A stretch of DNA of 64,000 nucleotides from an uncultured Rhodothermales bacterium (lineage in GTDB: Bacteria; Bacteroidota; Rhodothermia; Rhodothermales; JANQRZ01): NCBI GenBank assembly GCA_964438105.1, contig CAYTJT010000001.1, positions 1,236 to 65,235 on the forward strand, in the 5' to 3' direction. Shown in pieces: positions 8,172 to 36,386 of the stretch. How positions within the stretch are numbered: position 1 is the stretch's first letter; the number at the start of each line of letters is the position of its first letter. Position numbers and translations under genes: made by a program. The notes under the pieces are model-generated. The model was not told the DNA's origin. It did not search any database and saw only the letters and a program-made list of their open reading frames with translations.

Positions 8172-8416
8172 ACGACAACAAACTCCTGCTCGTAGAGAGC
8201 TGTCGTTCGTCGTAGGCATTGGCCGGGTTGACCGAACCGTCAGCATCGAATGCACGCGCGCCAACCGGGTACGATGATCGACAAGTCCATGATGGATACT
8301 TTCTCGTGTACGAAGGCGGTTTTCGTGAAAACCGCTTCAAGGTTCTAACTACAGTTGACCCAACACCCTCAATCAATCTATGTTATGAATAACCAAACAC
8401 TTAACCCCTTTATCTG

Positions 8417-9280: not shown

Positions 9281-9310
9281 CTCAGTCATGTTCGACCTCA
9301 ACAGTTAACA

Positions 9311-9351
9311 GCTCATACGGTCCGGCGAAACTATCGCCGGACCGTATGAGC
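9311..9351 (+). terminator. perfect 18-bp stem / 5-nt loop hairpin downstream of the lipoprotein gene
   Basis: gctcatacggtccggcga-aacta-tcgccggaccgtatgagc. No T-run follows, so a terminator role is probable but not certain. Confidence 0.55.
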
Positions 9352-9367
9352 ACATAATACCGATACC

Positions 9368-9544
9368 ATGAAACCGTTCTTAACATCACTTTTATTCACT
9401 ATAATTTTTTCTACACTTACACTTTACTATAATGATTTTGACATAAGCAGCACATGGCTTTTCAAATCTCTTGTTTCCGGTTTTGTCTTCTATCTACTGA
9501 TGCTTGCTCTTAACAAGACGGGAAGAGGCCAGGCAAAGAGCTGA
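9368..9544 (+). CDS. 58-aa small membrane protein (below ORF-track cutoff)
   Basis: Own translation: MKPFLTSLLFTIIFSTLTLYYNDFDISSTWLFKSLVSGFVFYLLMLALNKTGRGQAKS. Two hydrophobic segments. AT-rich like the adjacent lipoprotein gene. Confidence 0.45.
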   Translation: MKPFLTSLLFTIIFSTLTLYYNDFDISSTWLFKSLVSGFVFYLLMLALNKTGRGQAKS

Positions 9545-9573
9545 CCACTTAGCCATGCAGATGCGTACGATTT

Positions 9574-10365
9574 CTATTTGCCTTCGCGGAGCGCCAGGTA
9601 GTTGACCGCTTTGGCAGCCGTCCAGCCTCGACGCTGCATCAGCCTCTCGACGCGCTCGGCCTCGAAGAACTGCGTGCGCACGCCGACTTCGCTGTGCGAG
9701 TACATGACGTACTCGGACGCCTCGGGGGCGAGGTCGCCCATGTAGGACGTCATTTTGTGCGCGACGGAATCGAGCAGGCCGGGGGGAAACTTACCTCGGG
9801 CGAACACGCGACCCTCGCGGGCGGGGTCGAGCTGCGGCACGGCGCGCACACCCGGCGGCGCGTCGGTCTCCTGGTGCCGGGGCTGATCCGTTAAGGCGCG
9901 CGGTTTCGCGTTCGCGGGTTTGGGCGCTGACTCGGCACGCCGCCACTCGCCCGACTCGAAGTACTCGTCGATGAGCGGCTTGCACGATCCCCAGCCCGCC
10001 GGCCCGGGCCGCTCGGTCAGTGCCTCGGCGAGAGCGTCGCAGTAGCGGTAGCGGATCGCAAAACCCCAGACGCCCATGTCGCCGTCGGCCTGTAACGGTT
10101 CGAGCGTGAGGCCGAAGCGCGGCGCGAGCTGGTCGAAGCGCGAGCGGAAGGCGTTAAAGTCGTCGAGGTCGCGGTCGTCGGTGATGCGCACCGGAATGGC
10201 GATCGTCAGCTTATCGTCCGGCAGAGGCGTTCCGTCAGCGCGCATGACGGCGTCGTCGCTGGGCAGCACCATCCCGGTGCCCGCCTCGTCGCCAGTCGAG
10301 ACGTAGTGGTTGATGGCGAGGAAAAGCCGGTTTAGCGGCGACTCCTGCATGAAGGTAAGTGGCAT
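9574..10365 (-). CDS. hypothetical protein
   Basis: 263-aa ORF with ordinary composition. No family recognised. Confidence 0.55.
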   Translation of the reverse strand: MPLTFMQESPLNRLFLAINHYVSTGDEAGTGMVLPSDDAVMRADGTPLPDDKLTIAIPVRITDDRDLDDFNAFRSRFDQLAPRFGLTLEPLQADGDMGVWGFAIRYRYCDALAEALTERPGPAGWGSCKPLIDEYFESGEWRRAESAPKPANAKPRALTDQPRHQETDAPPGVRAVPQLDPAREGRVFARGKFPPGLLDSVAHKMTSYMGDLAPEASEYVMYSHSEVGVRTQFFEAERVERLMQRRGWTAAKAVNYLALREGK

Positions 10366-17893: not shown

Positions 17894-19330
17894 TTAAATC
17901 GCCAATAGCTGACGAACCGCTGATATGAGGGGGCGGAGTCCAGCGTCGGTGTGCATTTTGTCAGCCGGACCAGCGAAGGCACGCACCTCCACGAGCAGAT
18001 CCTTCGCCACGGGACTGATTAATTTGGCTTCGACTAGCTCTAAGAGAGCGTCGAACTTTTTTTTGGGCAGCGACCGATCAAGCTTCGAGGAGATTGATGG
18101 GTCAGTGAACGAGAGCAGAGCGCGGGATGCCTGGCGAGGGGTAAACTGTGCGATCAGCTTTTGGTAGATCGGCTCTGCGTAGTAAGCAGTGCCATGCCCA
18201 TTCGTGAGGTATACCTCGACGATCGCTCGAACATACTCAGCCTCAATAGACTCTGGTACAGTCCCCTTACCCCCGACTGCGGTGTCTAGCTGACGTGCAA
18301 ACGTAGGCTCCAGATGGAAATTTTTCATGGGAGCACGATGCGCAGCAAGTAGGTTCTGAATCGCGTCTTGCACCTCGGCAGCGCGTAATGCTTCGGGCAC
18401 GTAACTGGCCGCGTCAACGAGAGTGAGGAGGGCACGGGCACGCTCAGCTTCACCGGTCTCGCCATTGGCGGCATACTGGCCATACTTGACCCCAAACGAC
18501 CGCCTCACGTCCTCGCCAAGCATCACCCATAGTCGGGGGAGCAGATGCCGTACGTTTTGCCGAGCATGTTCCGGTGAGTCTTTGTCTACGTAGATGCCGA
18601 AGAGGCCACTGGCTAGACTCCCCGCTCTATCTCGATCCAACTCGCCGAAGAAAGCCGCCGCTTGGGAAGCTTCGGCTGCGTTCATCTCAGAAGACCGAAC
18701 ATTGGTAAGCAACCTCGCGATGTGAGCAACAATGGTGTTGACTGGTAGAGCGACTACTTCATTTATGCACGTCTCCAACCAAGCTATGAGCTGGAGACCT
18801 GTAAGGTCGTTCTGATTGGGGTGTGCAGCGCTCGCCCAGTTGCGCATGTAGCGAATGCTGTCCAGTTGCTTAAAGCCAACGTCTGAGATCAATCCGATTT
18901 CACGAGCGCCCTGCAAGAGTTCATCATCGGTAATCTTGTCGAGGTCACTGGCGCCCTTCAAGTTCGACCGTTTGTTCGCGCTTTTGACAGCTACGTCGAA
19001 GAAGTAAGACACGTCGTACTGCATAACTCGGTGGCGCAGCTCTTGAATCGTCTCATCCCACAGGTAGTTGAGAGCAGCGTCAAAAAGACCTGCGGCGACC
19101 GCTGCTGTGAACTTGGAGACGTAAAGCGATCGAGCTTTTTGACTCGAATCCAGTTTGCTTAGAGCATCGGAGAGGTTGTTGATCACACGTCTCCGCTGCT
19201 CGGTAGGTGTCAGCACGTCGGACGTAGGCAGCCCACTACTCTGCAAGAACGCCAGTAGTCCATCGTTGAATGGACCTATCTCCTGTATGTCTGATGCTCT
19301 GAGTGTTAAGGCGGTCTCGGAAGCACTCAT
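17894..19330 (-). CDS. HEPN/Abi_C-like protein (abortive-infection candidate)
   Basis: 478-aa ORF with lower GC. Single Rx4-6H-type string IRYMRNWASAAHPNQ. Otherwise helical with no other family recognised. Confidence 0.55.
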   Translation of the reverse strand: MSASETALTLRASDIQEIGPFNDGLLAFLQSSGLPTSDVLTPTEQRRRVINNLSDALSKLDSSQKARSLYVSKFTAAVAAGLFDAALNYLWDETIQELRHRVMQYDVSYFFDVAVKSANKRSNLKGASDLDKITDDELLQGAREIGLISDVGFKQLDSIRYMRNWASAAHPNQNDLTGLQLIAWLETCINEVVALPVNTIVAHIARLLTNVRSSEMNAAEASQAAAFFGELDRDRAGSLASGLFGIYVDKDSPEHARQNVRHLLPRLWVMLGEDVRRSFGVKYGQYAANGETGEAERARALLTLVDAASYVPEALRAAEVQDAIQNLLAAHRAPMKNFHLEPTFARQLDTAVGGKGTVPESIEAEYVRAIVEVYLTNGHGTAYYAEPIYQKLIAQFTPRQASRALLSFTDPSISSKLDRSLPKKKFDALLELVEAKLISPVAKDLLVEVRAFAGPADKMHTDAGLRPLISAVRQLLAI

Positions 19331-19368
19331 GCTGCATTGCTGTTTTTGACAAAAGGCAGCAATGCAGC
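19331..19368. promoter_or_regulatory. inverted repeat GCTGCATTGCTG-N14-CAGCAATGCAGC abutting the HEPN-like start codon
   Basis: Perfect 12-bp arms. Spacer tttttgacaaaagg. The repeat starts at the nucleotide next to ATG 19330. Confidence 0.65.
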
Positions 19369-19445
19369 AGTACGAGTTTGGTTCTCCGAAACGAACCTGG
19401 CCGGACGAGCGCTACCTCTTCGGCAAACGCTGGACCACCTCACCG

Positions 19446-20177
19446 TCAGCGTCGAGAAACACAAGTGATGATAACCCCATCGGCATCCACGGATATTCGG
19501 ATGCGGCTCCTCCCCTGTTTGTCATGGAGCGAGAGCGTCACGTCGTCGCGGTCGCTACGCGGATCGGTGATGGTCCCGGCGAAGAACCTGCGCGTGTGGG
19601 GTCCGGGCGAGAGGCGGGCGATCTGAGCGCGAGCCGAATCGCTTCCGCCTCGGGCCGAGTCGCGGATTGCGATGAGTTCGTTCATCGGTAGTGCAGGCTG
19701 ATCGTTGACGAAGTACCCTGCCGATCGAACGCTACCCTGCTCGGAGTAGGTCATGTTGAGCACTTGATCCTGGTTGATTCGATCAAACGAGAGGTGACCA
19801 GACCCCCAACGCACGGAGTCTCGGTCCTCACCGCCGAAGATGAGGCCGCCCGTCTCCGTCTCTTCGGTATTGTAGAAGATCATTCCCGGATGCGTACTCG
19901 GCCTTTCCCGCAGTTCGTCGCCTTGGAACACGAGACCGGGGATGCGCTCCGCGTTTGCGATCACCATCGCCAACCGCCCGTCGGGTTCGCGCACGTTGAT
20001 GCGCTCGACGTCGATCTCGACGAAGCGTTGGTATGCATAACCGAACGCTCCTAGGACGAGCAGTAGCAACAGGCCGAACTTTGCTGCTTTGCTGCCTTTG
20101 ATAAAAAACAGCAAAGCAGCAGAAACCTCTACAACAGCTCGTGACCTGACAACCGCCGGAACTGCGCGACTGGGCAT
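19446..20177 (-). CDS. membrane-anchored hypothetical protein
   Basis: 243-aa ORF. N-terminal KGSKAAKFGLLLLLVLGAFGYAY signal anchor. The start is uncertain because repeat 20082-20121 lies within the 5' end. Confidence 0.5.
   Translation of the reverse strand: MPSRAVPAVVRSRAVVEVSAALLFFIKGSKAAKFGLLLLLVLGAFGYAYQRFVEIDVERINVREPDGRLAMVIANAERIPGLVFQGDELRERPSTHPGMIFYNTEETETGGLIFGGEDRDSVRWGSGHLSFDRINQDQVLNMTYSEQGSVRSAGYFVNDQPALPMNELIAIRDSARGGSDSARAQIARLSPGPHTRRFFAGTITDPRSDRDDVTLSLHDKQGRSRIRISVDADGVIITCVSRR
20082..20121. repeat. inverted repeat TGCTGCTTTGCTG-N14-CAGCAAAGCAGCA
   Basis: Perfect 13-bp arms. Spacer cctttgataaaaaa is in the opposite orientation to the spacers at 17844 and 19343. Confidence 0.65.
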
Positions 20178-20329
20178 TCCGTGTGCGCCGACAGTTCAGC
20201 TAGGCGCACCTTGGCGTCGCGTGCGAGGGGCGAGCCGATCAGACGATTTTCGGAGTCGGTGAGCATTTGGCCGAACTCCTCGTTGGCAACGGCACGGGCG
20301 ATGCGCTCGCGGGCGGACGTACGGATCAT
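20129..20329 (-). CDS. hypothetical 66-aa protein coupled to the HlyD gene
   Basis: Its ATG shares one nucleotide with the HlyD stop (TGATG). No family recognised. Confidence 0.4.
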   Translation of the reverse strand: MIRTSARERIARAVANEEFGQMLTDSENRLIGSPLARDAKVRLAELSAHTECPVAQFRRLSGHELL

Positions 20330-21549
20330 CAGCTAGCGACGTGGCGAAACGAGCGGAAGAACCCCGCCAGCAGTGTCTCACGCTTCGTCTGCGCCGCGAT
20401 CTCGGCGGAGAAGCCCGAGCGGACAGGCGAAGCGTAGGACCCACCAGACGAGCGGAGAGCGCGCAGGGACGGCGCGTCGACGGCGACCTCGACAACGTAG
20501 CCGCCGCTGCCGTCGGCGCTGGCTGCCGGAGCGATACGCACGACGCGCCCGCCGAGCTGGCGCGGCTGATCGCCGGGGAGGGCCGGAACGGTGATGCGCG
20601 CGGGCAGGCCGGGACGCAGTTTGTGCGCGTCCGACTCGGATGCTCGAGCACGGACGATGAGCGCGACGTGACGCCCGAATTGGAAGCGTTCGAGAGCTGC
20701 GACGTCCATCAGCTTCTCGCCCCGTGCAAGGTGACGGCCGATGGCGTCGGCCAGCTCCTCGGTAATGACGATTCCGCCGTCGGGCAGCGTGGCCGGTACG
20801 ACCATCGAGAGGCGTTCGAGGCGTCCGTCGAGCGCATCGAGGCGAGCGGTGAGCGCGGCACGTTCGGCGTCGCGTACGGCCTGCTCGGCGAGGTGCGACT
20901 GTTCTACGCCGTGTGTGGCTTCGGACAGTAGGGCCTCGGCGACGGCGACGCCGCTGCGGGCCTCGTCGAGCGCGACGTGTACGCCCTCGGGAAGCTGCTC
21001 CGTGTCGTGCTCGGCAAACCCAAACTCGACCGCGGTGCGGCGGTACGCCGCACGGGCCGCCGTCAGGCGGGCCTGAGCGGCTGCGGTTCTCTGCGCGCGA
21101 CGCTGCCGGTCCTCGTAGTGGCGCGTCCTGGCCGCGCGCGTCTCGGCGTCGATGCGGGCGCGCTGCGCGAGAAGCTGGGCGCGCTCGGCCGATAGATCGT
21201 AGCCGTCGAGCAGCGCAAGAAGTTGTCCCGCCTCGACCGTGTCGCCGGCGCTCACGAATACGCCCGCGACCTGGCCGCTGATCTGAGGCCGGATAGGCAC
21301 GACGCGTTCGGCGGCGAAGTAGCCGCTGAGTTCGACCGTTCGCGTGAGCGGCACGGACGCACCGGCGACGAGCGCGGCCACCAGGACGAGACCGGCGATG
21401 CGCAGCACGCGGCGAGTGACGGCGCGGTCGCCGTCGGAACTGGCGCCGATCACCGAGACGTCGGGGACGGCGAAGCCGTGAGCCGGAGGCAGCGCCACGC
21501 GTGAGCCGATTTGCCGCCGGCGCGGCGCTCGGGTTGTGGGAGCAGACAT
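20329..21549 (-). CDS. HlyD-family secretion/membrane-fusion protein
   Basis: N-terminal TM helix, lipoyl-like hairpin ISGQVAGVFVSAGDTVEAGQLLALLD, long Ala/Arg coiled coil, C-terminal barrel. Confidence 0.85.
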   Translation of the reverse strand: MSAPTTRAPRRRQIGSRVALPPAHGFAVPDVSVIGASSDGDRAVTRRVLRIAGLVLVAALVAGASVPLTRTVELSGYFAAERVVPIRPQISGQVAGVFVSAGDTVEAGQLLALLDGYDLSAERAQLLAQRARIDAETRAARTRHYEDRQRRAQRTAAAQARLTAARAAYRRTAVEFGFAEHDTEQLPEGVHVALDEARSGVAVAEALLSEATHGVEQSHLAEQAVRDAERAALTARLDALDGRLERLSMVVPATLPDGGIVITEELADAIGRHLARGEKLMDVAALERFQFGRHVALIVRARASESDAHKLRPGLPARITVPALPGDQPRQLGGRVVRIAPAASADGSGGYVVEVAVDAPSLRALRSSGGSYASPVRSGFSAEIAAQTKRETLLAGFFRSFRHVAS

Positions 21550-21551
21550 AG

Positions 21552-23432
21552 CTAGGCGGGTACGTGAACGGAGACAGACGGCGAAGGCGACGCGTGGCCA
21601 TCGCTGGCGGACGGCACGCCCAGCGTGACGGTGCGCGTGGCGAGGCGGGCGTGTTCGGCCCGGTGCGTGACCAGCACGACGGCGGGCGCATCGGGTAGGG
21701 CGCTCAGAGCGCGCAGGAAGGCCGAGAACACGTCGTGTGCGGTCGAGGCGTCCAGGTTGGCCGCTACCTCGTCGAGCACGACCAGGCGGATTCTGCGGCC
21801 CGTGGGAGCGAGCTGCACGCGCAGCAGCGTCCGGGCGAGCGCGAGCCGCTGACGTTCACCGGCCGACAGAGACGCCGCGCCTTCGGTCAGAACGGTGTCG
21901 AGGCCGTCCGGTAGCTCGTCGACGCGGTGAGCGAGGGCGCAGGTCGAGAGCGCAGCGTAGACCTGCGCGTCCCACCGATCGGGCTGGGCCTCGCCCGCGA
22001 GCTGCGCGTCGGCGTACTCGGCCAGCGGCGCGAGCGCGTTGTCGCGAATGGTGGCCGAGAGCAAGCCCGGCTCTTGCCAGCAGACGGCGAGCTGACGCCG
22101 GTAGTCCTTGACGCCCACGTCGGTGACGGAGCGCCAGCCGGCGGCCGTCTCGCACAGCACGTCGCCGCTATCGGGCGCTTCCATGCGGGCCAGCATTCGG
22201 AGCAGTGTGCTCTTGCCGCAGCCCGACGGGCCGACGAGCGCAACGACTTCGCCGGGCGCGAGGTCGAGGCGCGGCGCGTAGAGTTCTGGGGCGTCTGGGG
22301 CGTAGCGAAAGCGCACGTCCTGAGCGGCGAACCTTCCGGTCATCGTGTGCTCAGGTGCGAGCCGGTCGGGGGCGGGTTTGTACGCCTCGGCGGGGTCAGA
22401 CTCGGGCGTTTCGTCGACGTACTCGAACAGCCGGGCCAGCGAGAGCGACGCCTGTTGGAGCTTGCCGCCGAGGTCGATGAGGCCCGCGATCTGGGGAAGG
22501 AGGATGCCCGAGTAGGCCATGAACGCCACGTACGTGCCCAGCGTGATCGACTCCGACACGACGAACGACCAGCCGAACCACATGACGGCGGCGGTATTGA
22601 CGGCTCTGAAACCGGCGTTGGTGGCGCCCAGGCCGTACCAGAGGCCGGTTGCCCTCGCCGTTCCGGCGTGGGCGGTCGAGACGGCATCACGTGCACGCGC
22701 GATCAACATCGGCTCACAGGCCATGCTCTTGAAGGTTCTGACTTCGCGCAGCGCTTCGGTCTGAAACTGCGACCAGGCGTCGTTGGCGGCGTAGGTCTGG
22801 CGCCAGTAGCGGTTGGCGCGCCTGCTTACAGCCGTCGTGAGCAGCGCGGTGAGCGGCACGGACGCGAGCGCGACGAGGGCTAGGCGCGCGTCGAGCAGCA
22901 GCAGGATGGGCGGGATGAGCAGCAGGTAGACGCCCTTGCTGACGAGCTGCATAACCGCGTCGGCTCCGGTCTCGATGACGGTGCGGACGTCGCCGAAGCG
23001 GGCCGAGGTTTTACCTGAGCCGTGCGCCTCGATAGTGCGCGCGGGCAGGTGCAATACGTGATTGAAGAGCGCAATCCGGGCGAGGCTGCGCATCCGGATG
23101 CGGCTGGCGAACCCGGCGTAGCTTCCGAGCGCGTGGATGCCGTGCTGAGCGAAGCGGACGGCGAGCAGCCCGGCGACGAGAAAGCCGAGCAGAGACAGGT
23201 TGCCGCTCGGATAGACCTTGTCGAACATGGCCTTGACTATTAGCGGCGCGGCGGTCGCGCAGGCGGCGACGGCGAGCATCAGCGCGGCGGCGCGGGCGAG
23301 GGCGGGCCACTCGGAGCGGAAGAGCCGGGCGAGGCGGCGGGCGTGGGCCAGGCTGACGCTCAGCGGTGGGGTAGCGCCCACCTGTGGCGTATCGGCCATC
23401 GGAGCGGAGGTGTTGGCGGACGAGAGAACCAT
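21552..23432 (-). CDS. ABC exporter, fused permease/ATPase (no C39 peptidase domain)
   Basis: Six-TM N-half. Walker A GPSGCGKSTLL, signature LSAGERQRLALAR, Walker B LVVLDEVAANLD. Confidence 0.9.
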   Translation of the reverse strand: MVLSSANTSAPMADTPQVGATPPLSVSLAHARRLARLFRSEWPALARAAALMLAVAACATAAPLIVKAMFDKVYPSGNLSLLGFLVAGLLAVRFAQHGIHALGSYAGFASRIRMRSLARIALFNHVLHLPARTIEAHGSGKTSARFGDVRTVIETGADAVMQLVSKGVYLLLIPPILLLLDARLALVALASVPLTALLTTAVSRRANRYWRQTYAANDAWSQFQTEALREVRTFKSMACEPMLIARARDAVSTAHAGTARATGLWYGLGATNAGFRAVNTAAVMWFGWSFVVSESITLGTYVAFMAYSGILLPQIAGLIDLGGKLQQASLSLARLFEYVDETPESDPAEAYKPAPDRLAPEHTMTGRFAAQDVRFRYAPDAPELYAPRLDLAPGEVVALVGPSGCGKSTLLRMLARMEAPDSGDVLCETAAGWRSVTDVGVKDYRRQLAVCWQEPGLLSATIRDNALAPLAEYADAQLAGEAQPDRWDAQVYAALSTCALAHRVDELPDGLDTVLTEGAASLSAGERQRLALARTLLRVQLAPTGRRIRLVVLDEVAANLDASTAHDVFSAFLRALSALPDAPAVVLVTHRAEHARLATRTVTLGVPSASDGHASPSPSVSVHVPA

Positions 23433-23492
23433 CCCGCCCCGAGGGCGCGACGGAGCGCAGCGTCGAGGCGGGATGCCGGTGTGTCGTGCGGG

Positions 23493-23597
23493 CTAGCGGC
23501 CCGACACGAGGTCGTCGGGCGGCGGGCTTGCCGGTTGATCGTTGCCGCCGCCGTGGAGGATGAGGCGGATCGCCTCGCAGAGCTGAAGGGTCAGCAT
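23493..23597 (-). CDS. mini-ORF A, 34 aa, HGGGN..PPPDD family
   Basis: Own codon-by-codon translation: MLTLQLCEAIRLILHGGGNDQPASPPPDDLVSGR. 60 nt upstream of the ABC gene. Confidence 0.4.
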   Translation of the reverse strand: MLTLQLCEAIRLILHGGGNDQPASPPPDDLVSGR

Positions 23598-23664
23598 GGC
23601 GTTGGGGGTTGTCGCGGGTTCGTTGAGCGGATGATTTGCCGGCTGGTCAGGCCGAGCGTGCGGA

Positions 23665-23796
23665 TCAGTAGGTCGACGGCGGCGACCCGGCGAGGTCGTC
23701 GGGCGGCGGGCTTGCCGGCTCGTCGTTGCCCCTTCCGTGGTCGTCGGCGCGGAGGGCACCGGTGATCGGTGCTAGCGCGGCCTGGTGGCTGTCCAC
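23665..23796 (-). CDS. mini-ORF B, 43 aa (GTG start), HGRGN..PPPDD family
   Basis: Own translation: (V)DSHQAALAPITGALRADDHGRGNDEPASPPPDDLAGSPPSTY. Paralogous to A and C. Confidence 0.35.
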   Translation of the reverse strand: MDSHQAALAPITGALRADDHGRGNDEPASPPPDDLAGSPPSTY

Positions 23797-23868
23797 GAGG
23801 GTTGGGGTATGCGTCTCGCGTGGAGACTGGTGAAGCCGCCCGCCGGAGTGGCGAGCGGTAGCTGTTCG

Positions 23869-25299
23869 CTACCGGATGACGGTGAGCGTGCGCGTCTGCG
23901 AAGCTGCGCGGATGAGGTAGAGGCCGGGCGAGAGGGCGGACACGTCGAGGCGGTCGGTGCTGGGCGCGAGCGTGGCGACGTGCTGGCCGAGCAGGTCGTA
24001 GACCGTGGCCGCCGTGCCTTCAGGTCGGTCGATGCGGACGGATGCGCGCGCTGGGTTGGGATAGGCGGCGAGCGCGCGAGCGGGAATCGTCAGCTCGACG
24101 ACGGGCGAAAGCTCTTGGCTGCCGTCGAGGTCGACCTGTCGCAACCGGAAGCGGTGCGTGCCGGGAGCGAGCGCGGCCGTGGTGAAGCGGTAGTGCTGGG
24201 CTTCGAGCGTCGTTCCGTGACCCGTCGCAAAGCTGATCGACACGAAGCCGCCGTCACGGTCGTGCTCGACGTGGAAGCCGCTGTTGCCTGTCTCGCTGGC
24301 TGTCGTCCAGTCGAGGCGCGCGCGCTTCCCGTCGAGCGTGGCCGTAAAGGCGACAAGTTCGACGGGGAGCGCGCCGGTCGCGTAAGCGCGATCCGCGAGC
24401 GTGGCGTCGATCACGAACGGGTTGTCGTTGCCCTGGTGACCCTTCACGCGGGCGGAGCGGTCGCGCTCGGCCTGATCGGGTGGATCGGTTCGATGCCAGG
24501 CGATGAGCGTAGCGAGTTGGCCGTCGAACCAATCGTGGCGGTCTTGCGACTCGTCGACTTCGTTCTGATAGATCGAGCGGAAGTAGAAGAGGGCGCGCGC
24601 GACGTCGCCGCGCACCGATGCGCGCGGCATGAAGTGGGTCGAACTGACGGCCGAGAAGAGCAGCGTGTCGGCTCCGGCCTGAGCGAAGGTGTAGTTGGTC
24701 GTGTCGGCGTAGAGTCGCGTCGCGGCCGAGTAGGCGAACTGTCCGAACGGCTTGTTGCCTCGGGCCGAGTTGACGTCGCCTCGCGCGGGCCAGAGGTGGT
24801 GCAGGTCGGTCTTGGCGCTGCCGTAGCGCGCGCCGTACGACTGCGGCCAGAGGTGTTCGGTGTTGATGGTGCGGCTGTTGGAGCACGACGACGAGGAGCC
24901 GTCGCGGTCGCCGTCGCAGCCCGCCGAGGTCGGGTCCTGGCCGGGGGCGATGGGGAGGACGCGCCCGGTGTAGATGTCGGTGATGCGGGTGCGGTCGGCG
25001 TCGTCGACGAAGGCGAACAACGTGTCGCGGGCGCGGGCGTACGAGTAGGTCGACATGGGTGTGTGGCTCGCCTGGATGCACTTGATGAGCGCAGCGCCGG
25101 ACTGGCCGGGGCAGATCGTCTGGGCGCGAACGGCGGAAGTGGGAGCGACGAGCAGGACGAGCAGAATCGCGGCGCAATACCACGGCTTCCAGCTCCGCTG
25201 CGCTCGGATGCCGGAAGAGGGGATCGCCGAACGAGAGGAGTCGCCACTTGTCGGGAACGCCTGCGCGTTTGGCGGATTGGGCTGGGAAACACGACGCAC
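23869..25299 (-). CDS. secreted endonuclease I family nuclease with T9SS C-terminal sorting domain
   Basis: NTEHLWPQSYGA, DLHHLWPARGDVNSARGN. Signal peptide AAILLVLLVAPTSAVRAQ. CTD AYPNPARASVRIDRP...GLYLIRAASQTRTLTVIR. Start is uncertain; GTG 25299 is the first in-frame start not antisense to the Xre/RES genes. Confidence 0.8.
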   Translation of the reverse strand: MRRVSQPNPPNAQAFPTSGDSSRSAIPSSGIRAQRSWKPWYCAAILLVLLVAPTSAVRAQTICPGQSGAALIKCIQASHTPMSTYSYARARDTLFAFVDDADRTRITDIYTGRVLPIAPGQDPTSAGCDGDRDGSSSSCSNSRTINTEHLWPQSYGARYGSAKTDLHHLWPARGDVNSARGNKPFGQFAYSAATRLYADTTNYTFAQAGADTLLFSAVSSTHFMPRASVRGDVARALFYFRSIYQNEVDESQDRHDWFDGQLATLIAWHRTDPPDQAERDRSARVKGHQGNDNPFVIDATLADRAYATGALPVELVAFTATLDGKRARLDWTTASETGNSGFHVEHDRDGGFVSISFATGHGTTLEAQHYRFTTAALAPGTHRFRLRQVDLDGSQELSPVVELTIPARALAAYPNPARASVRIDRPEGTAATVYDLLGQHVATLAPSTDRLDVSALSPGLYLIRAASQTRTLTVIR

Positions 25300-25305
25300 A
25301 ATCGG

Positions 25306-25780
25306 TATGACGGACACGGCAGGCATCAGGGAGTGGAAAGGAGGAACAGTCGATTCAGGGGGCGGCGTGCCGTTCCACCGGCTCGACGGGTCGGGCGTGA
25401 TCGGGCTGGCGCACGGCGAGGGTCCGAAGCGGCTGCATGTGGGGCTGACGGTTCGCGCCGTCGACGCGCTGCGGGCGTGGCTGGGCGTGAGCGCCAAAGA
25501 GCTGGCGTCGGTGCTGTGCATCAGCGACCGCACGCTGAGCCGGCGGCGCAAGTCGGGCGAGCGGCTGGGCCTGGACGAGGGCGACCGGGTGCTGCGCCTG
25601 GCGCGGCTGTGCGAGATGGCCGAGAGCGCGCTGAGCGGGGCCGAGCGGGGCGCGCGCTGGATGCGCGAGCCGCACCCGCTTCTCGAGGGCGAAGCCCCGA
25701 TGCGGCTGGCGCGCACCGAGCCGGGCGTGCGGCAGGTGGAGTCGCTGCTAGCGAGCATCGAGTACTCGATGCCGGTATAG
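25306..25780 (+). CDS. Xre/MbcA/ParS-like antitoxin (HTH + DUF2384-type C-terminal domain)
   Basis: From ATG 25306. LASVLCISDRTLSRRRK (HTH). WMREPHPLLEGEAPMRLARTEPGVRQVESLLASIEY. Confidence 0.8.
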
Positions 25781-26257
25781 GTGGGCGAGCTGCTCACGCT
25801 GCACCGCTTGACGCTGGCGAAGTATGCCGGGACCGCGCTGAGCGGCATCGGCGGGCTGCACGCCGCGGGCCGGTGGCACCGCGCCGGGCATCCGGTCGTG
25901 TACGCGTCGGAGTCGACGGCGCTGGCCGTGCTCGAAGTGCTGGCGGGCACGCGCGACCGAACGGTGCTGAGGGACGCTTCGTACGTGCGCCTGACGGTCG
26001 ACGTGCCGGCCGAAGGGATCGTTCGCCTGAGCGGCGCAGAGCTTCCCCCGGACTGGCAGGCGTGGCCGCACGGCGAGTCGGCGCAGGAGCTGGGCAGCCG
26101 GTGGCTGGCGAGCCGCGCCTCGCTGGGGCTGTCGGTGCCGTCGACGCTCATCCCGACCGAGCGCAACGTGCTGCTCAACCCGCTGCACCCGGACTGGGGG
26201 CGAGTGGAGGCGAGCGGGCCGGAAGCGTTCGTCTTCGACGCGCGGCTGGGCGAGTAG
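25781..26257 (+). CDS. RES-domain toxin
   Basis: GTG abuts the antitoxin stop. GRWHRAGHPVVYASESTALAVLE ... SVPSTLIPTERNVLLNP. Confidence 0.85.
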   Translation: MGELLTLHRLTLAKYAGTALSGIGGLHAAGRWHRAGHPVVYASESTALAVLEVLAGTRDRTVLRDASYVRLTVDVPAEGIVRLSGAELPPDWQAWPHGESAQELGSRWLASRASLGLSVPSTLIPTERNVLLNPLHPDWGRVEASGPEAFVFDARLGE

Positions 26258-29927: not shown

Positions 29928-31511
29928 CTATTTGTGGAGTCTGGCCCAGAGGCGCGACGCCTCCTCAATGCACGGGTCTTCGCTGGCCGAGTGCGCCGAC
30001 GCGAAGGCCATCAGCTTGCCGCACACGTCGGGCGTGATCTTGCCGCGCTGGCGTCCGAAGAGCATCCACCGTTTGGGCGGCTTCTCGACCATGAGGTAGC
30101 GCAGGTAGGCGACGGCGTGAGTGGGAGGTACAGTCTCGCCGGTGACGCCCAGTTCGCTCAGCGCGTGCGCGTGAAGCGCTTGAGCCTTGTCGCTGCCGCT
30201 CGCGTCGGCGAGCAGGTCGTAGACGCCCCGGCGCAGCGTTTCGAGTTCGGCGGCGTGCGGGTGCGGCGCCGCATCGGCGCCAGGCGTGGCGGCTGGATGA
30301 GCGGCGGCTGTCGGAGGTGCGAAGCGCTCGCCTGGTGCCTGCTCCGGCTCGGGCGGTGCGAGGCTCGCGGCGGCGGCCGACGGCTCGACGTGCGGTGCCG
30401 GTGCGATGTGCTCGGCCGACTCGATGGGCTTCTCGGCGCCGCTCGCCCGGTCTGCCGCGCCGCTGCTTTCGTCGACGACGGGCGGCTCGTCGTCGCTTTG
30501 CTCGATTGGCGAGAAAAACGGCAGCGGGTCGCTGCCTACGGGTGGGCCGCCCTGCATTTCGAGTACGAGCGCGGCCAGTCCGGTTGCGACGGGGTGTGAC
30601 GGCTCGACGGCGCGTGGCCGTTCGGCACGCTCTTTCAGGTACGTCTCGACCTGCTCAGCCTGCTCGCTGCTGGGCGGAGCCGACGCGCGCAGCTCGGTTT
30701 CGGCCTGAGCCAGCGCCGCCGCCGCGTCGCCGCCGCGCCGCGCCTGGGCCAGCCGGTTGGCTTCGCGGATGGCGGCCATGAGGTCGAACGGTGTGCCGCC
30801 CTTATCCGGCAAGACAGCTTTATTCTTGGCGCGGTCGTAGAGGAGCACGCGGCCGACGAATCCGGCCATGTGGCCGGATAGCACGGCGGCGAGACCGGCG
30901 GGGTCGATGGTGCCGCCTGGGATGAGCGGGTGGCTGTGGTCGGGCACGACACCGACGCTGGATGACAGCTCGTGCAGGTCGACCAGGCGCAGGCGCGGGC
31001 GCTTGGCGTCGGTGAAATCATTGAGTTCGAGCACGCCGTTGCCGCAGCCTGAGCGGACGAGCTGATCGGCGACGAGCTGAGCGTCGGGGACATGCGTGCC
31101 GGAATGGAAACTCGGCTGGCCGTCCCCCGAAGCCTCGCCGATCATCAGCTTCATGCATTCGGAGTAGAACACCGTTTCGATAAAGCGGGCACACTCGGTC
31201 TCGGATAGTTCGTAGACCGAGAGGAAAGCGGGCCGACCGGCGTCGCGGTGCTCGATGAAGCGCCGAAGCGCGACGGCGGGCATAACGGGAAACCGGTAGT
31301 CGGGCGTATTGCGCGCGACGGTTAGAAGCTGTCCGGAGACGCAGACGAACGCGTCGTATACGCCGCCGAGCACGGCCAGCGACTCTTCGGTCTCGGCGTA
31401 GCGCACGACGATGAGCGCGACGACGCCCTCGGCCTGCTGGTCGGCCAGACCGACGGGGTCCGCGAACGTCGCGGGCACGTTCTCGAAGATGGGCTTGGCT
31501 GTGGTGAGCAT
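29928..31511 (-). CDS. hypothetical 527-aa protein (Pro/Ala-rich central linker)
   Basis: Long ORF with no recognisable family. Junctions to both neighbours are 0-1 nt. Confidence 0.6.
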   Translation of the reverse strand: MLTTAKPIFENVPATFADPVGLADQQAEGVVALIVVRYAETEESLAVLGGVYDAFVCVSGQLLTVARNTPDYRFPVMPAVALRRFIEHRDAGRPAFLSVYELSETECARFIETVFYSECMKLMIGEASGDGQPSFHSGTHVPDAQLVADQLVRSGCGNGVLELNDFTDAKRPRLRLVDLHELSSSVGVVPDHSHPLIPGGTIDPAGLAAVLSGHMAGFVGRVLLYDRAKNKAVLPDKGGTPFDLMAAIREANRLAQARRGGDAAAALAQAETELRASAPPSSEQAEQVETYLKERAERPRAVEPSHPVATGLAALVLEMQGGPPVGSDPLPFFSPIEQSDDEPPVVDESSGAADRASGAEKPIESAEHIAPAPHVEPSAAAASLAPPEPEQAPGERFAPPTAAAHPAATPGADAAPHPHAAELETLRRGVYDLLADASGSDKAQALHAHALSELGVTGETVPPTHAVAYLRYLMVEKPPKRWMLFGRQRGKITPDVCGKLMAFASAHSASEDPCIEEASRLWARLHK

Positions 31512-32871: not shown

Positions 32872-33819
32872 TTAGCCCTCGCTGTTCTCGCGCACGACAA
32901 CACCATCGCCGCCGCGCTGCTTGGTCTGGCGGAAGTCGCCGTTCGGAAACTCGGTGCGGCTGATGACCGAACCCGACGAGTTCTCGCCCGAGCTGAGCAG
33001 CGTACGGAGCAGCGTCCCGGTGAAACTACCATCGGCGTTGACGGTGAAGCCCGCTTCGTAGTAGCGCGTGCGGACAGCTCCGTTCGCCCCGCCGTCGCGG
33101 ACGGAGCCTGTGCCGTTGGCGTTGAGCGTCACGACCGGCTCGCGGATGGTGTACGACTCACGCGCTTCGGCGTTGGCGTAGGTGACGACGGCGCCGCCCG
33201 TCGTGGGCGAATAGACCTGCCCGACGCGCCACGTGTCGTAGCTGGTGTTGTCGAAGCTGGCCGCCGCCGATCCGGTGCCTTTGAGGTAGTTCACCGTTCC
33301 GCCTTTGAGCGCCGCGACGAACGCATCGAGTTGGGCCGCCGTGGTGAACGTGAGGTTGACCGACTCGACGCCGTTGAGAGCCGCCGTGTTCGCGTCGCCA
33401 TCGTGATCGACGGCGAGGCCGTGCTGAACGCGCGTGCCCCACACGCTGACGCCTTGGGGCTGGCGGTGGGTGAGCTGCACCAGGTAGCCTTTGCCGAGCG
33501 TGCTGTTGTAGACGCCGGTGTACGTGGTGGTGTCGGCCTGCATGGCGCTGGCCTGGGCCAGACCGAGGCGGGCGGCCTCGTAGCCGGTGTTGCCGGTCTT
33601 GCCGAAGCCGTTATCGAAGCCGAGATCGAAGAGCGATTCGACCTCCTCAAACACTTCGACGACGAGGTGTTCGGCGTTCGACGGCAGTGGCGCCAGGTCC
33701 GGCGGCGTGTCGGCAGCGCTCAGGTCGGCGGAGTCGCAGGCGGCGAAGCCGAGCGCGCACAACGCGACGGCGGCGGAGAGGAGGCCGCGCGAAGCGGCGA
33801 GGGTACGCGGAGAGCGCAT
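32872..33819 (-). CDS. lipoprotein, beta-rich, unknown function
   Basis: Track ORF 32872..33924 trimmed to MRSPRTLAASRGLLSAAVALCALGFAAC (lipobox). Confidence 0.55.
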   Translation of the reverse strand: MRSPRTLAASRGLLSAAVALCALGFAACDSADLSAADTPPDLAPLPSNAEHLVVEVFEEVESLFDLGFDNGFGKTGNTGYEAARLGLAQASAMQADTTTYTGVYNSTLGKGYLVQLTHRQPQGVSVWGTRVQHGLAVDHDGDANTAALNGVESVNLTFTTAAQLDAFVAALKGGTVNYLKGTGSAAASFDNTSYDTWRVGQVYSPTTGGAVVTYANAEARESYTIREPVVTLNANGTGSVRDGGANGAVRTRYYEAGFTVNADGSFTGTLLRTLLSSGENSSGSVISRTEFPNGDFRQTKQRGGDGVVVRENSEG

Positions 33820-33978: not shown

Positions 33979-34007
33979 ATCTACGCGAGGGTGGTTCCTC
34001 GCACGGG

Positions 34008-34039
34008 CCGCCGGGTGCCTCCGCACTCGGCGGTTTTTT
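34008..34039 (+). terminator. canonical intrinsic terminator on the plus strand (orphan)
   Basis: ccgccgggtgc-ctcc-gcactcggcgg followed by tttttt. 11-bp stem including one G-U pair. All neighbouring genes are on the minus strand. Confidence 0.6.
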
Positions 34040-34089
34040 GCGTTCGGCCGGGACGCGCAGGGCGTCCGGGTGTGGCCGGGCAAGCGTGC

Positions 34090-34173
34090 CTACGCGTTGT
34101 CGGGCGGAGGCTGGTTGCCGCCGCCGTGGTCAGCGCGAAGCGGACCGAACGGCCCGTAGGGGTTAATCAGCAT
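34090..34173 (-). CDS. mini-ORF C, 27 aa, HGGGN..PPPDN family
   Basis: Own codon-by-codon translation: MLINPYGPFGPLRADHGGGNQPPPDNA. 66 nt downstream of the YdjM-HlyD fusion gene. Confidence 0.35.
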   Translation of the reverse strand: MLINPYGPFGPLRADHGGGNQPPPDNA

Positions 34174-34239
34174 GATGCTGGGGGTGTGTGCTCTTTCGAG
34201 CGATTTGGGGTTGAATCGGTGCGGGGCGGTCCGAGCGCG

Positions 34240-35973
34240 TCAGCGGTTCGGACCGGACGGCTCACCGGCGCCGTCCGTAGGAGAAGGGGAAGACGAGCGC
34301 GCGCGCGTCGCCTGCTCGACCAGGACGACGCGCACCTCGGTGCGGTCGGGGCCGTGCGGGTGGCGCTCGATGCGCGCGACGACGCCGCGAGCAGGCGAGA
34401 CGACGTACGTGTCGCTCTGCGCCTGAACGGCCTTGATCTGCGCCCGGGTGACGCGGGCGCGGGCTTTGCGCTCGCGCTCGGCGTGGCCGCGCTGCCAGTC
34501 GGAGAGGCGAAGAGCGGCTTGGTCGAGAGCAGCGTCGGCGTCGGCCGACACGCGTTCGGCGCGCTCGACGGCTGCCGCCGACGCGAAGCCGCCGGCGTGC
34601 TGCTGCCGTTTGCGCTGGGCAGCGTCGCGTGCCGCGTCGGCGCGGGCGCGCAGCGAGACCGGATCGGCGGCGGGCGCGCGCTCGGAGAGCACGGCGGAAA
34701 GATCGGCCTGAGCGTCGGTCAGGTCGAGGCGCGCATCCTGGACGCTGGCCGGGGAGAGGACGGCGACGGTGTCGCCCTGAGCGACCGTGTCGCCTTCGGC
34801 GATGAGCAGCCGGGGCGGCTCGCTGGGCTTGTGCGCGAACGGCACGCGGCGCACGCTGCCGGTTTCGAGAGCGGCCGGATCGTAGTTCTCGACCTCACCC
34901 TCGGGCAAGTAGACGCGGACCGATACGACGCCGGTTTCGACGATGCGGTCGAGCAGTCCCAGGCGGCGTAGATCGTCGAGCGTGGCGAACTGCAAGCTGA
35001 GATTGGTACCCGACCCGGTGACGGTGTTGAAGTGGAACGCGTCAGGCGTGATGGCCTCGCCGTCGGTCGTGGTGAGCTGGCCGTCGAGCAGGTGACGGGC
35101 GCGCGAGCCGTCGGAGCGCAGCGGGACGAGGTTCTCGAGGTCGGCGATGACCCGGCCCGCTAGGTCGGCGCGGCGGCGCGAGACGGTGACGGCTTCGCCC
35201 TTGTGCGCGTTGACCTTGTCGGGCTGGAAGTTGGCCGAGTAGGCTTCCCCGAGGGAAAAGGTCTCGCCGGTCTCAGGGTCGCGCACGAGCAGCGTCGAGA
35301 TACCTGTCGTGCCGATGGCGTCGTACGTGCCTTCGAGGCGGCGCATATGCTCGGGGTCGCTAGCCGAGACGCTGACGCTGACGAGGTGGCCGTCGCCGCT
35401 CCAATCCAAGAAGTCCCTGACTGCGGCCGATGCGTCGGCCTGAACGGAGCGCACGAGGCGGTGGTAGCCCTGCATCTGGACGACCGCAAACGGGATGGTC
35501 AGAGCCAAGAACAGCACGCCGAAGAAAGTGTCTACCCGGCTGCCGGTGACGGTGCGGTATGCCGTCTCCTGGCGGTTGTAGTAGGGAAAGACGCCGCGCA
35601 CGTCGGACCACGGCCAGAATACCCAGACGCCTTGAACCGTCCAGGTGTCGAGGAAGCAGTGAGACAGGTAGCCCGCGACGACGGCGGCGTAGAGGTGCGG
35701 CCAGTCCCACCAGAGCAGGGGCAGGCAGGCGACGACGACGACGGCCTGAGCGGCGTAGCAGTGCGTGATGGTGCGGTGTCCCCAGCGCCGTTCGATGCGG
35801 CGCGCAATCGGCTTGAACGTGCGGCCGACGGTCGAGCCGAGCGTGTCGACGTCGGGCGCGGCGGAGGCGGCACCGGCCAGCACCAGCCCGGCGGGCGTCA
35901 GGGGGATCTGAAAGAGTGTGGCGCTCAGGGTGTAGGCGAGGATGCCGCCGGTGAGGTGCGTTCCGAGCTGCAT
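34240..35973 (-). CDS. fusion protein: YdjM/DUF457-like membrane metal-hydrolase + HlyD/MFP-like adaptor
   Basis: From MQLGTHLTGG (ATG 35973; alternative start 36009). His strings WGHRTITH and GYLSHCFLD in the TM region. C-terminal LLIAEGDTVAQGDTVAVLSP hairpin, coiled coil, VVSPARGVVARIE. Confidence 0.6.
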   Translation of the reverse strand: MQLGTHLTGGILAYTLSATLFQIPLTPAGLVLAGAASAAPDVDTLGSTVGRTFKPIARRIERRWGHRTITHCYAAQAVVVVACLPLLWWDWPHLYAAVVAGYLSHCFLDTWTVQGVWVFWPWSDVRGVFPYYNRQETAYRTVTGSRVDTFFGVLFLALTIPFAVVQMQGYHRLVRSVQADASAAVRDFLDWSGDGHLVSVSVSASDPEHMRRLEGTYDAIGTTGISTLLVRDPETGETFSLGEAYSANFQPDKVNAHKGEAVTVSRRRADLAGRVIADLENLVPLRSDGSRARHLLDGQLTTTDGEAITPDAFHFNTVTGSGTNLSLQFATLDDLRRLGLLDRIVETGVVSVRVYLPEGEVENYDPAALETGSVRRVPFAHKPSEPPRLLIAEGDTVAQGDTVAVLSPASVQDARLDLTDAQADLSAVLSERAPAADPVSLRARADAARDAAQRKRQQHAGGFASAAAVERAERVSADADAALDQAALRLSDWQRGHAERERKARARVTRAQIKAVQAQSDTYVVSPARGVVARIERHPHGPDRTEVRVVLVEQATRARSSSPSPTDGAGEPSGPNR

Positions 35974-35975
35974 CG

Positions 35976-36386
35976 CTACGACCGGTACATGATCGTGGTC
36001 AGCTCCCACGACTCGGTGACCGCGCCGGGCGCGTCGGGCGTGACGTATAGCTCGACGACGTATTCGCCCTGTGGAGCGAAGAGGCTATTGGGACCGATGC
36101 CGCGCCAGTGCGCTTCGCGCTGCCCCGCCGTCTCGCGGCGCGGGCGGGTGATGTCGCGCACGAGCGAGCGCGTTCCGTCGGCCCCTACGGCGGTGATGCG
36201 GATTTGGACCTCGCCGCTGATTTCGAGCCGGTACCGGATGACGCACGGCTCCTCGAACGCGTTGAACGTAGGGCTGACGCGAAAGCTGCTGACCGACTCG
36301 ACGGCGGAGGAGACGCCGACAGGCGGCGTGCATCCGGCCAGAACGAGAAGAGCCGAAGAGGCGAGCAGGTACGGGAGAACGGTCAT
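35976..36386 (-). CDS. small lipoprotein, beta-sandwich-like
   Basis: MTVLPYLLASSALLVLAGC lipobox. The start forms an ATGA overlap with the integrase stop. Confidence 0.6.
   Translation of the reverse strand: MTVLPYLLASSALLVLAGCTPPVGVSSAVESVSSFRVSPTFNAFEEPCVIRYRLEISGEVQIRITAVGADGTRSLVRDITRPRRETAGQREAHWRGIGPNSLFAPQGEYVVELYVTPDAPGAVTESWELTTIMYRS

Follow-up and report, generated by a model that had tools for sequence, protein, structure and literature searches.

Three mini-open reading frames (mini-ORFs A, B, and C) with a common proline-rich C terminus lie on the minus strand of this 64-kb stretch of DNA (67.5% G+C; called the window below), which comes from a Rhodothermales-like bacterium. 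A and B precede the genes for an ATP-binding cassette (ABC) exporter and a HlyD-family protein, and the locus raises the question of whether the peptides are cargo of these exporters, as proposed in an initial annotation made from the sequence, or have some other role. Judging from related gene clusters, they are probably not the exporter's cargo, and the favored reading, to which a probability of roughly 35% is assigned, is that they act in cis as polyproline upstream ORFs.

Three mini-ORFs with a shared C-terminal motif

The mini-ORFs and their conserved cores are as follows.

23493 to 23597, minus strand: mini-ORF A, 34 amino acids (aa), MLTLQLCEAIRLILHGGGNDQPASPPPDDLVSGR
23665 to 23796, minus strand: mini-ORF B, 43 aa, GTG start, MDSHQAALAPITGALRADDHGRGNDEPASPPPDDLAGSPPSTY
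34090 to 34173, minus strand: mini-ORF C, 27 aa, MLINPYGPFGPLRADHGGGNQPPPDNA
23511 to 23555, minus strand: conserved core of A, HGGGNDQPASPPPDD
23695 to 23739, minus strand: conserved core of B, HGRGNDEPASPPPDD
34096 to 34128, minus strand: conserved core of C, HGGGNQPPPDN, 12 nt shorter than in A and B through an in-frame deletion

The coordinates, strand, and translations of all three ORFs agree with the initial annotation, as do the 12-nt in-frame deletion in C and the 66-nt gap between C and the stop codon of the preceding YdjM fusion gene (34240). Other details require correction. B begins with GTG rather than ATG, and the A and B cores differ in four codons rather than by two changes; two of these differences are synonymous (GGC/GGA and GAT/GAC), one exchanges Gly and Arg (GGC/AGG), and one exchanges Gln and Glu (CAA/GAG). 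The description of the ORFs as unannotated does not hold for A and B, both of which are called hypothetical protein by the Joint Genome Institute (JGI; P0001 and P0002, respectively) in three metagenome contigs from this strain. A and B are directly upstream of the ABC gene, and C is 10 kb away from the exporter, just upstream of a lipoprotein gene.

The motif common to A, B, and C is HG(G/R)GN...PPPD(D/N), and the conserved segment comprises the C-terminal 12 to 16 residues, HGxGN(DxPAS)PPPD(D/N); the N-terminal half of A is almost unrelated to those of B and C. A six-frame scan of the 64-kb window finds three matches to HG.GN and three to PPPD[DN], always paired and confined to A, B, and C. 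Triple proline occurs three times in the 104 mini-ORF residues versus once in the 6,891 residues of 16 large window proteins, and the sharing of the motif is real and not due to chance. The sole other PPP among the large proteins is within a 1,160-aa ORF (2848 to 6330, minus strand), which also has an N6-adenine methyltransferase-like GNPPF motif and may code for a type IIG or BREX PglX-like enzyme.

A repeated cassette of about 200 nt

Similarity among the three copies extends beyond the ORFs, ~85 nt upstream of the start and ~30 nt past the stop, and in each copy it takes in the stop codon of the ORF before it (Endonuclease_1 for B, B for A, and the YdjM fusion for C). Pairwise alignments together with nhmmer give these approximate limits.

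23655 to 23880, minus strand: repeat unit B, starting ~85 nt before the start codon and overlapping the Endonuclease_1 stop codon
23460 to 23675, minus strand: repeat unit A, starting at the B stop codon and including the 9-mer CGCTCGGCC
34045 to 34260, minus strand: repeat unit C, starting within the last codons of the YdjM fusion

These alignments define a single cassette of ~200 nt, present in three copies, in which an ~85-nt upstream leader precedes a mini-ORF of 27 to 43 codons. No fourth copy is found by nhmmer in the window or in the related loci described below.

With so much similarity outside the reading frames, the repeat could instead be noncoding: the two intergenic regions might both carry one RNA element or one DNA site for protein binding, and the ORFs would then be incidental. 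The GGC GGC GGC and CCG CCG CCC runs are indeed able to pair. However, B disrupts the Gly-Pro codon stem in the alifold analysis, the alifold covariation term is unfavorable, and Rfam has no match in the window at its gathering score; an RNA-element identity is rejected on the last two results. The third-position bias of substitutions, in-frame indels, and frame-specific codon bias described next also argue for a protein-coding origin, making a noncoding repeat very improbable.

Evidence for translation

Codon usage, start context, and the pattern of change among the copies all support the translated frame proposed initially. In a codon log-likelihood model trained on 13 window genes, A, B, and C score 0.42, 0.30, and 0.36 per codon in the proposed frame, and real genes score 0.46 ± 0.20 when read in frame and about −0.6 when read out of frame; the remaining five frames of each mini-ORF score zero or negative, the proposed frame being the best of six each time. 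G+C contents at the first, second, and third codon positions are 0.76, 0.47, and 0.88 in A versus 0.70, 0.52, and 0.83 in window genes.

All three starts are preceded by a C-rich box with the pattern A(A/T)CCCC(C)-N4-7-C-ATG/GTG (start contexts AACCCCCAACGCCATG for A and ACCCCCAGCATCATG for C). The box is also present before the 315-aa lipoprotein gene (33819), a 149-aa gene (53128), and the ABC gene of related locus L027, and CCCC at positions −18 to −5 is 2.3-fold enriched (19% of 119 called starts versus 7 to 8% of controls), with C at position −1 in 65% of the 119 called gene starts. A similar C-rich, non-Shine-Dalgarno context, with the box ~6 to 10 nt before the ATG, is seen at many gene starts in loci L026 to L066, and may be a translation-initiation signature of the lineage or its plasmids.

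The distances from the start codon to the His codon (42 nt in A, 57 in B, and 45 in C) and the 12-nt core indel are all multiples of 3, there is no frame-breaking indel among the three copies, and substitutions are mostly at third codon positions. The ratio of nonsynonymous to synonymous substitution rates (dN/dS; Nei-Gojobori), a check suggested in the initial annotation, is 0.18 across the 16 codons of the A-B core and 0.07 across the 7 codons of the B-C pre-core, and 0.65 to 0.9 for A-B and A-C across all alignable codons; the core value of ~0.2 favors a conserved frame, with all ratios drawn from 7 to 23 codons, a sample too small for significance. From these sequence characters, the mini-ORFs look translated, or translated until very recently.

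The second of these alternatives leaves room for functionless, decaying duplicates of a cassette that stems from a small gene, copied during a rearrangement of the element alongside the insertion of a RES/Xre gene pair and coding-like only because they are young. Such duplicates would account for the strain-specific distribution of the copies and the lack of homologues elsewhere, for other recent insertions in the same element, for the loss of the ATG start from B, and for the differing ends of A and C, in which C terminates at a TAG where A has TCG, and the TAG of A is aligned with a TTG in C. The nearly unrelated N-terminal halves and the overall dN/dS of 0.65 to 0.9 would also fit. On the other hand, in all three copies the frame is still open, the start codon has the preferred context, and the core is complete, the indels are all in frame, dN/dS is low in the A-B core and B-C pre-core, and codon scores are at the level of real genes in 3/3 copies, such that decay appears doubtful.

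Strain-specific insertions into a conserved cluster

Eight related loci (listed as L026, L027, L028, and L061 to L066) were fetched for comparison, with ABC proteins 47 to 79% identical to that in the window. Members of this ABC family are from Rhodothermales, Rubricoccus marinus, and other metagenome-assembled genomes, and the loci have the same gene order, on Rep3/ParA plasmid-like contigs. The HGxGN/PPPD motif is absent from all six frames of all of these loci, and co-occurrence of motif and exporter genes is not observed among relatives. The gap between the nuclease and ABC genes is mostly 1 to 2 nt in the relatives according to gene calls, versus ~470 nt in the window, the exceptions being L061 (~230 nt) and L027 (~100 nt after correction of the ABC start). 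At the second site, L063 has an A6 hairpin 3 nt past the YdjM-fusion stop, and the window has ~190 extra nucleotides there, containing C. Because the syntenic relatives lack the motif and have shorter gaps, A/B (~440 nt) and C (~190 nt) are, on this comparison, recent strain-specific insertions into a conserved cluster.

Database searches identify no other members. Only A and B of the same strain are recovered from 5.8 billion clustered proteins using a peptide profile and word index, and from 1.84 billion representatives using full HMMER, and no Pfam or NCBIfam family matches A, B, or C. The possibility that they are fragments of a larger conserved protein is rejected, as no protein shares enough 5-mers and the Pfam and NCBIfam searches are empty. 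A combined degenerate DNA pattern has no matches in a viral-contig collection and 32 in a metagenome collection, none of them a small-ORF homologue and most with spacers that are not a multiple of 3 (four are in frame); absence from the metagenome collection is weak evidence because this collection does not include the JGI contigs carrying A and B. A genome-collection scan with the ABC protein finds distant ABCs only (≤28% identity) and no close genome, and alignment of the ABC with viral contigs finds nothing.

A candidate role as cis-acting polyproline upstream ORFs

The cassette was copied into intergenic gaps of the conserved plasmid-like cluster, and every mini-ORF is co-directional with its neighbors and occupies the leader region of the transcription unit that comes next, which is ABC-HlyD for A (itself preceded by B) and the lipoprotein operon for C. 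In the favored reading, the copies act in cis as upstream ORFs. The PPPD or PPPN sequence would be a stall-prone stretch, dependent on elongation factor P (EF-P) and on proline supply, and ribosome transit through PPP would set how much transcription or translation carries on into the genes downstream. The cassette itself probably originates from acidic, NPPP-ending small ORFs of the same cluster in relatives.

The reading is favored because the ORFs are ahead of co-directional genes, PPP is enriched, conservation coincides with the predicted tunnel segment, and hairpins follow A and C. The ABC start (23399) lies 93 nt beyond A, which B precedes, and the lipoprotein start (33819) lies 270 nt beyond C. 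The residues conserved in A, B, and C are those expected to be in the exit tunnel at a PPPD stall, with the N termini being variable. A variable N terminus with a conserved C-terminal tunnel segment is the pattern of arrest peptides such as SecM, TnaC, and MgtL/MgtP. In engineered Escherichia coli reporters, a polyproline sequence ahead of a terminator hairpin gives an EF-P-dependent change in read-through (PMC5021804). The hairpins downstream of A and C are located as follows.

23430 to 23475, minus strand: stable 13-bp hairpin between the A stop and the ABC gene, CAUCCCGCCUCGA...UCGGGGCGGGAUG, then GUUCUCUCGU
34005 to 34046, no strand assigned: A6 tract and GC-rich hairpin downstream of C, scoring as an intrinsic terminator on the plus strand only

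The hairpin after A is taken from the minimum-free-energy fold of 23380 to 23640 (z = −2.7). Downstream of C, there are small hairpins and then the A6 tract and hairpin, with a z of −4.2 for structured RNA. The A6 hairpin is conserved just 3′ of the YdjM fusion (~333 to 375 in L063), with no evident plus-strand gene.

Several observations weigh against a cis-acting role. The hairpin after A has no U-tract, is not called in a terminator scan, and leaves the likely ABC start at 23399 uncovered. No terminator/antiterminator pair is definable and no alternative pairing is conserved, nor is any RNA structure conserved among the copies. Conservation of leader and operon together, the usual hallmark of an attenuator, is not seen in the relatives, all of which lack the motif; within the window, B precedes A and not a structural gene, and C is a full 270 nt from the next gene. 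The low dN/dS values are from few codons, and PPPD stalling in this organism is assumed by analogy with E. coli data. In the relatives' small-ORF family, the distance from stop to hairpin varies, as it does for ordinary terminators, and protein-level homology between that family and A, B, and C is not significant.

The exporter and its neighbors

The mini-ORFs belong to a co-directional cluster, and the element that carries it also has genes for an integrase, a ParA-like protein, and an RHH protein. Genes in the cluster follow the order YdjM fusion, C, lipoprotein (315 aa), proteins of 125, 265, and 527 aa, AAA_16, SNase, Endonuclease_1 with a type IX secretion system (T9SS) tail, RES/Xre (on the other strand), a second Endonuclease_1, B, A, ABC, and the HlyD-type adaptor. 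The genes closest to the cassettes are listed here.

21552 to 23432, minus strand: ABC exporter, transmembrane and ATPase domains fused in one protein, C39 absent (Pfam)
20329 to 21498, minus strand: HlyD-family membrane-fusion protein (MFP), 389 aa (Pfam HlyD_D23 and HlyD_3 pass)
34240 to 36009, minus strand: YdjM-domain protein of 589 aa whose C-terminal half is coiled-coil/barrel-sandwich-like (Pfam YdjM)
32872 to 33819, minus strand: lipoprotein-like protein, 315 aa, first gene of a long co-directional cluster (JGI gene call)
23869 to 25056, minus strand: Endonuclease_1 with a T9SS sorting tail, directly upstream of unit B

The probable true start of the ABC gene, from N-terminal alignment with homologues, is the ATG at 23399. 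The protein matches only ABC_membrane and ABC_tran in Pfam, its transmembrane region begins at residue 53, and its NCBIfam alignments begin at profile position ~127 to 165, past the peptidase domain; Pfam and NCBIfam both confirm the absence of a C39 peptidase domain that was noted initially. Its best family matches are the type I secretion system (T1SS) HlyB and NHLP bacteriocin exporters, far below curated cutoffs (the best NCBIfam match, type_I_sec_HlyB, is below its cutoff, and TIGR01846 scores 198 bits versus a cutoff of 726). The adaptor is likewise below the cutoff for NCBIfam type_I_hlyD (E = 3.6e-15) and scores 56 bits versus 209 for TIGR01843, and Beta-barrel_AprE is listed for it in the JGI precomputed Pfam. 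Of the proposed YdjM-HlyD fusion, the YdjM part is supported by Pfam, but the HlyD half has only subthreshold matches (NCBIfam PRK03598, E = 0.006; Pfam barrel-sandwich, E ~0.1; and weak HlyD/DevB matches), and a single-sequence AlphaFold model has a predicted local distance difference test score (pLDDT) of 44, too low for it to inform on this half. The lipoprotein gene, 270 nt downstream of C, has the start context ATCCCCTACCGTCATG and codes for a signal sequence ending in Cys.

Could the peptides nonetheless be secreted by the ABC-HlyD pump or by the YdjM-MFP-like partner, as signals, toxins, or ribosomally synthesized and posttranslationally modified peptide (RiPP)-like products, with the C terminus as an uncleaved secretion signal? 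The location of A and B directly upstream of an ABC related most closely to HlyB and NHLP exporters, together with a HlyD-type adaptor and its listed Beta-barrel_AprE domain, is suggestive, as are the several paralogues, typical of bacteriocin loci. T1SS signals are C-terminal, which fits the conserved C termini, and HGGGND and HGRGND resemble one RTX GGxGxD unit. However, the ABC-MFP pair is kept in eight syntenic clusters without the peptides, and the pump therefore serves another purpose than the export of A, B, and C. Moreover, the ABC and adaptor family scores are far under the curated cutoffs, there is neither a C39 domain nor a conserved Gly-Gly leader (B has Gly-Arg), C is 10 kb from the pump and lacks the Asp of the RTX-like unit, and no homologue is found beside any exporter among 5.8 billion proteins. 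No maturation enzyme is recognized nearby by Pfam, PADLOC, or NCBIfam, with the neighbors of 125, 265, 315, and 527 aa having no assignable family. The evidence for export is adjacency alone, and this adjacency is not conserved, leaving the cargo proposal unsupported and export unlikely.

A number of other features of the element are of interest. The conserved cluster contains ~15 genes (window positions ~17200 to 37543, minus strand) and is present in L026 to L028 and L061 to L066, where it codes for the YdjM/coiled-coil fusion, a lipoprotein, proteins of 115 to 125, 265 to 307, and 527 to 586 aa, AAA_16, SNase, Endonuclease_1 proteins with T9SS tails, the C39-less ABC, and the HlyD-type adaptor; PADLOC has no system match for it. 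The RES toxin/Xre-type antitoxin pair (25055 to 26257, plus strand) is between the two Endonuclease_1 genes and is absent from the related clusters. ARAGORN reports an 84-nt tRNA-Gly(TCC) at 31061 to 31144 (minus strand) within the 527-aa ORF, which is probably a false positive. There are two low-G+C islands, at 8001 to 10000 and 18001 to 20000 (0.55 to 0.56 versus about 0.69), the second of which covers a 478-aa gene downstream of ABC-HlyD with no family assigned.

Small NPPP-ending ORFs in related clusters

A family of acidic small ORFs (45 to 60 aa; 13 database members, P0123 to P0135) is present in L028, L061, L067, and L068, the last of which shares its metagenome with the strain of the window. 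Their positions are given here in the coordinates of each locus.

L028: 4960 to 5127 and 5228 to 5374
L061: 6492 to 6656 and 7656 to 7793
L067: 647 to 820
L068: 526 to 708 and 1535 to 1678

These ORFs are very acidic, flank the SNase gene, and are present in two to three copies per element; P0129 (56 aa, MLTCIPQDPTGPSTDSADADLRTALGPVAMDDRLMEAVDSYIPTPDATDNPPPSGG) is a representative member. NPPP is invariant 3 to 4 codons before the stop, and a hairpin follows 4/4 of the ORFs examined downstream (L028 and L061). The family center, RLMEAVDSYIPTPD, is identical over 13 residues to a segment of elongation factor Tu (EF-Tu; P0136), and the top PDB match of the family is EF-Tu 6gfu (E = 0.67); the relatives' small ORF could have arisen by capture of part of tuf, or its product could mimic EF-Tu.

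The relatives' small ORFs and the window cassette have in common the C-rich start box, an ATGCT start, the upstream 9-mer CGCTCGGCC, and location in the same cluster and on the same strand. Both are proline rich, occur in two to three copies per element, and have N(x)PPP within a few codons of the stop and a hairpin after the stop, but the window copies lack the RLMEAVDSYIPTPD center and are placed elsewhere than beside SNase. GPL(R/Q)AD and N.PPP..-stop are shared with the relatives' family by C only, and C alone exceeds its own shuffles against this family (z = 2.3). A profile of the relatives' upstream regions has the starts of C and A as its best two window matches (E = 0.4 and 0.87), with the start box being generic here. 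At the protein level, hhalign gives no alignment of the relatives' family with A, B, and C, and phmmer gives E values of >0.7. A common origin of the window cassette and the relatives' small ORFs is plausible although unproven, at slightly better than even odds.

Whole-unit DNA homology to the relatives' units was considered and rejected, with nhmmer matching the start-box region only; its best other match, at 3719 to 3686, is a chance RPPPTGGGG stretch in the 1,160-aa methyltransferase-like ORF.

Two further features accompany the relatives' small ORFs. A conserved hairpin, CGGrGAG-[CGCTCGGCCGG...]-CTCyCCG, is located ~50 to 20 nt upstream of their starts in L067, L068, L061, and L028, with an apparent compensatory change (A:T in L068a versus G:C in L067 and L068b), and its loop 9-mer CGCTCGGCC recurs upstream of A (exactly) and C (with one mismatch). 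In addition, secreted-looking proteins of ~95 to 120 aa (L028 4527 to 4895, L061 6049 to 6411, L067 924 to 1283, and L066 4088 to 4375), with a His/Asp-rich stretch and a Cys-rich C terminus (YICGDCNLPSDDGCQCVCWSGNPRPGDCD), are coded beside the small ORFs and nucleases in the relatives and are absent from the window.

If A, B, and C are diverged kin of these ORFs, they might be free-standing, small, acidic, proline-rich proteins acting in trans, for example as binders or inhibitors of the cluster's nucleases or of another partner. The mini-ORFs are coding-like and each has its own upstream leader, the very acidic ORFs of the relatives flank SNase, and the hairpins after A, C, and the relatives' ORFs could be plain terminators. 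C in particular shares ML-, GPL(R/Q)AD, and N.PPP..-stop with the relatives' family, a resemblance that 41/2,000 shuffles reach in score. However, A and C are only weakly acidic (net charges of −2 and −1, respectively), A and B are away from the SNase gene, the conserved center of the family is missing from the window copies, profile comparison is empty, and no partner or fold is proposable for peptides of 27 to 43 aa. A trans-acting role is possible but not likely.

More speculatively, Rhodothermales plasmids may carry a new class of polyproline-terminated cassettes, some with an exact EF-Tu segment, that serve as sensors of translation state (EF-P, proline, or elongation capacity) and gate the secreted nucleases and the ABC-MFP pump, with the window copies being a rewritten and redeployed version; this is a long shot. 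Should the cis-acting polyproline leaders be borne out, they would exemplify a control module that senses translation and spreads, in the form of a small cassette, within a mobile element of a poorly studied phylum, and the relatives' NPPP family would become a testable system. At present, the value of the analysis is mainly corrective, in that the interpretation as peptides beside their exporter fails on comparison with related loci, and as a strain-specific orphan family, the mini-ORFs are of limited general importance. The more interesting lead is the EF-Tu-like, NPPP-ending small-ORF family of the related plasmids.

Comparison with known systems

Double-glycine and RiPP precursors with peptidase-containing ABC transporters (PCATs) resemble the window locus in having small tandem paralogous ORFs beside an ABC exporter and a HlyD-family protein, and A and C have a Gly-Gly pair. 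Double-glycine leaders are N-terminal, have hydrophobic residues at positions −4, −7, and −12, and terminate in GG (or GA/GS). A, B, and C have no LSxxELxxIxGG-type leader; B has Gly-Arg at the site and reads H-G-R-G, the conservation is C-terminal and downstream of the Gly run, and the N terminus of A bears almost no relation to those of B and C. The ABC here also differs from PCATs in lacking C39, and the relatives' exporters are without such precursors. A double-glycine leader is ruled out, in keeping with the earlier view that this is not a classical double-glycine bacteriocin system.

Substrates of T1SS with HlyB/PrtD-type transporters, such as RTX proteins and HasA, are similar with regard to the nearest ABC and adaptor family matches and the conserved C terminus. 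RTX proteins contain tandem GGxGxDxUx nonapeptide repeats, and HG(G/R)GND is like one of these, but it is a single partial unit in A (HGGGND) and B (HGRGND), it is missing in C (HGGGNQ), and there is no second unit, and the RTX reading is rejected. A, B, and C are also an order of magnitude shorter than T1SS substrates, their association with the exporter is not conserved, the transporter matches are far below cutoffs, and no outer-membrane partner is identified.

Leader ORFs and arrest peptides, including Salmonella mgtL/mgtP, SecM, and TnaC, are likewise short ORFs in the leaders of co-directional genes, and the window copies are similar to them in having 12 to 16 conserved positions up to and including PPP(D/N), a variable N terminus, and hairpins afterwards. 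They differ from these in sequence, in having two tandem copies and no defined terminator/antiterminator alternative, and in not being conserved with the downstream operon, with stalling suggested by analogy. The cassette, which is probably coding, is best placed in the broad class of small or leader ORFs.

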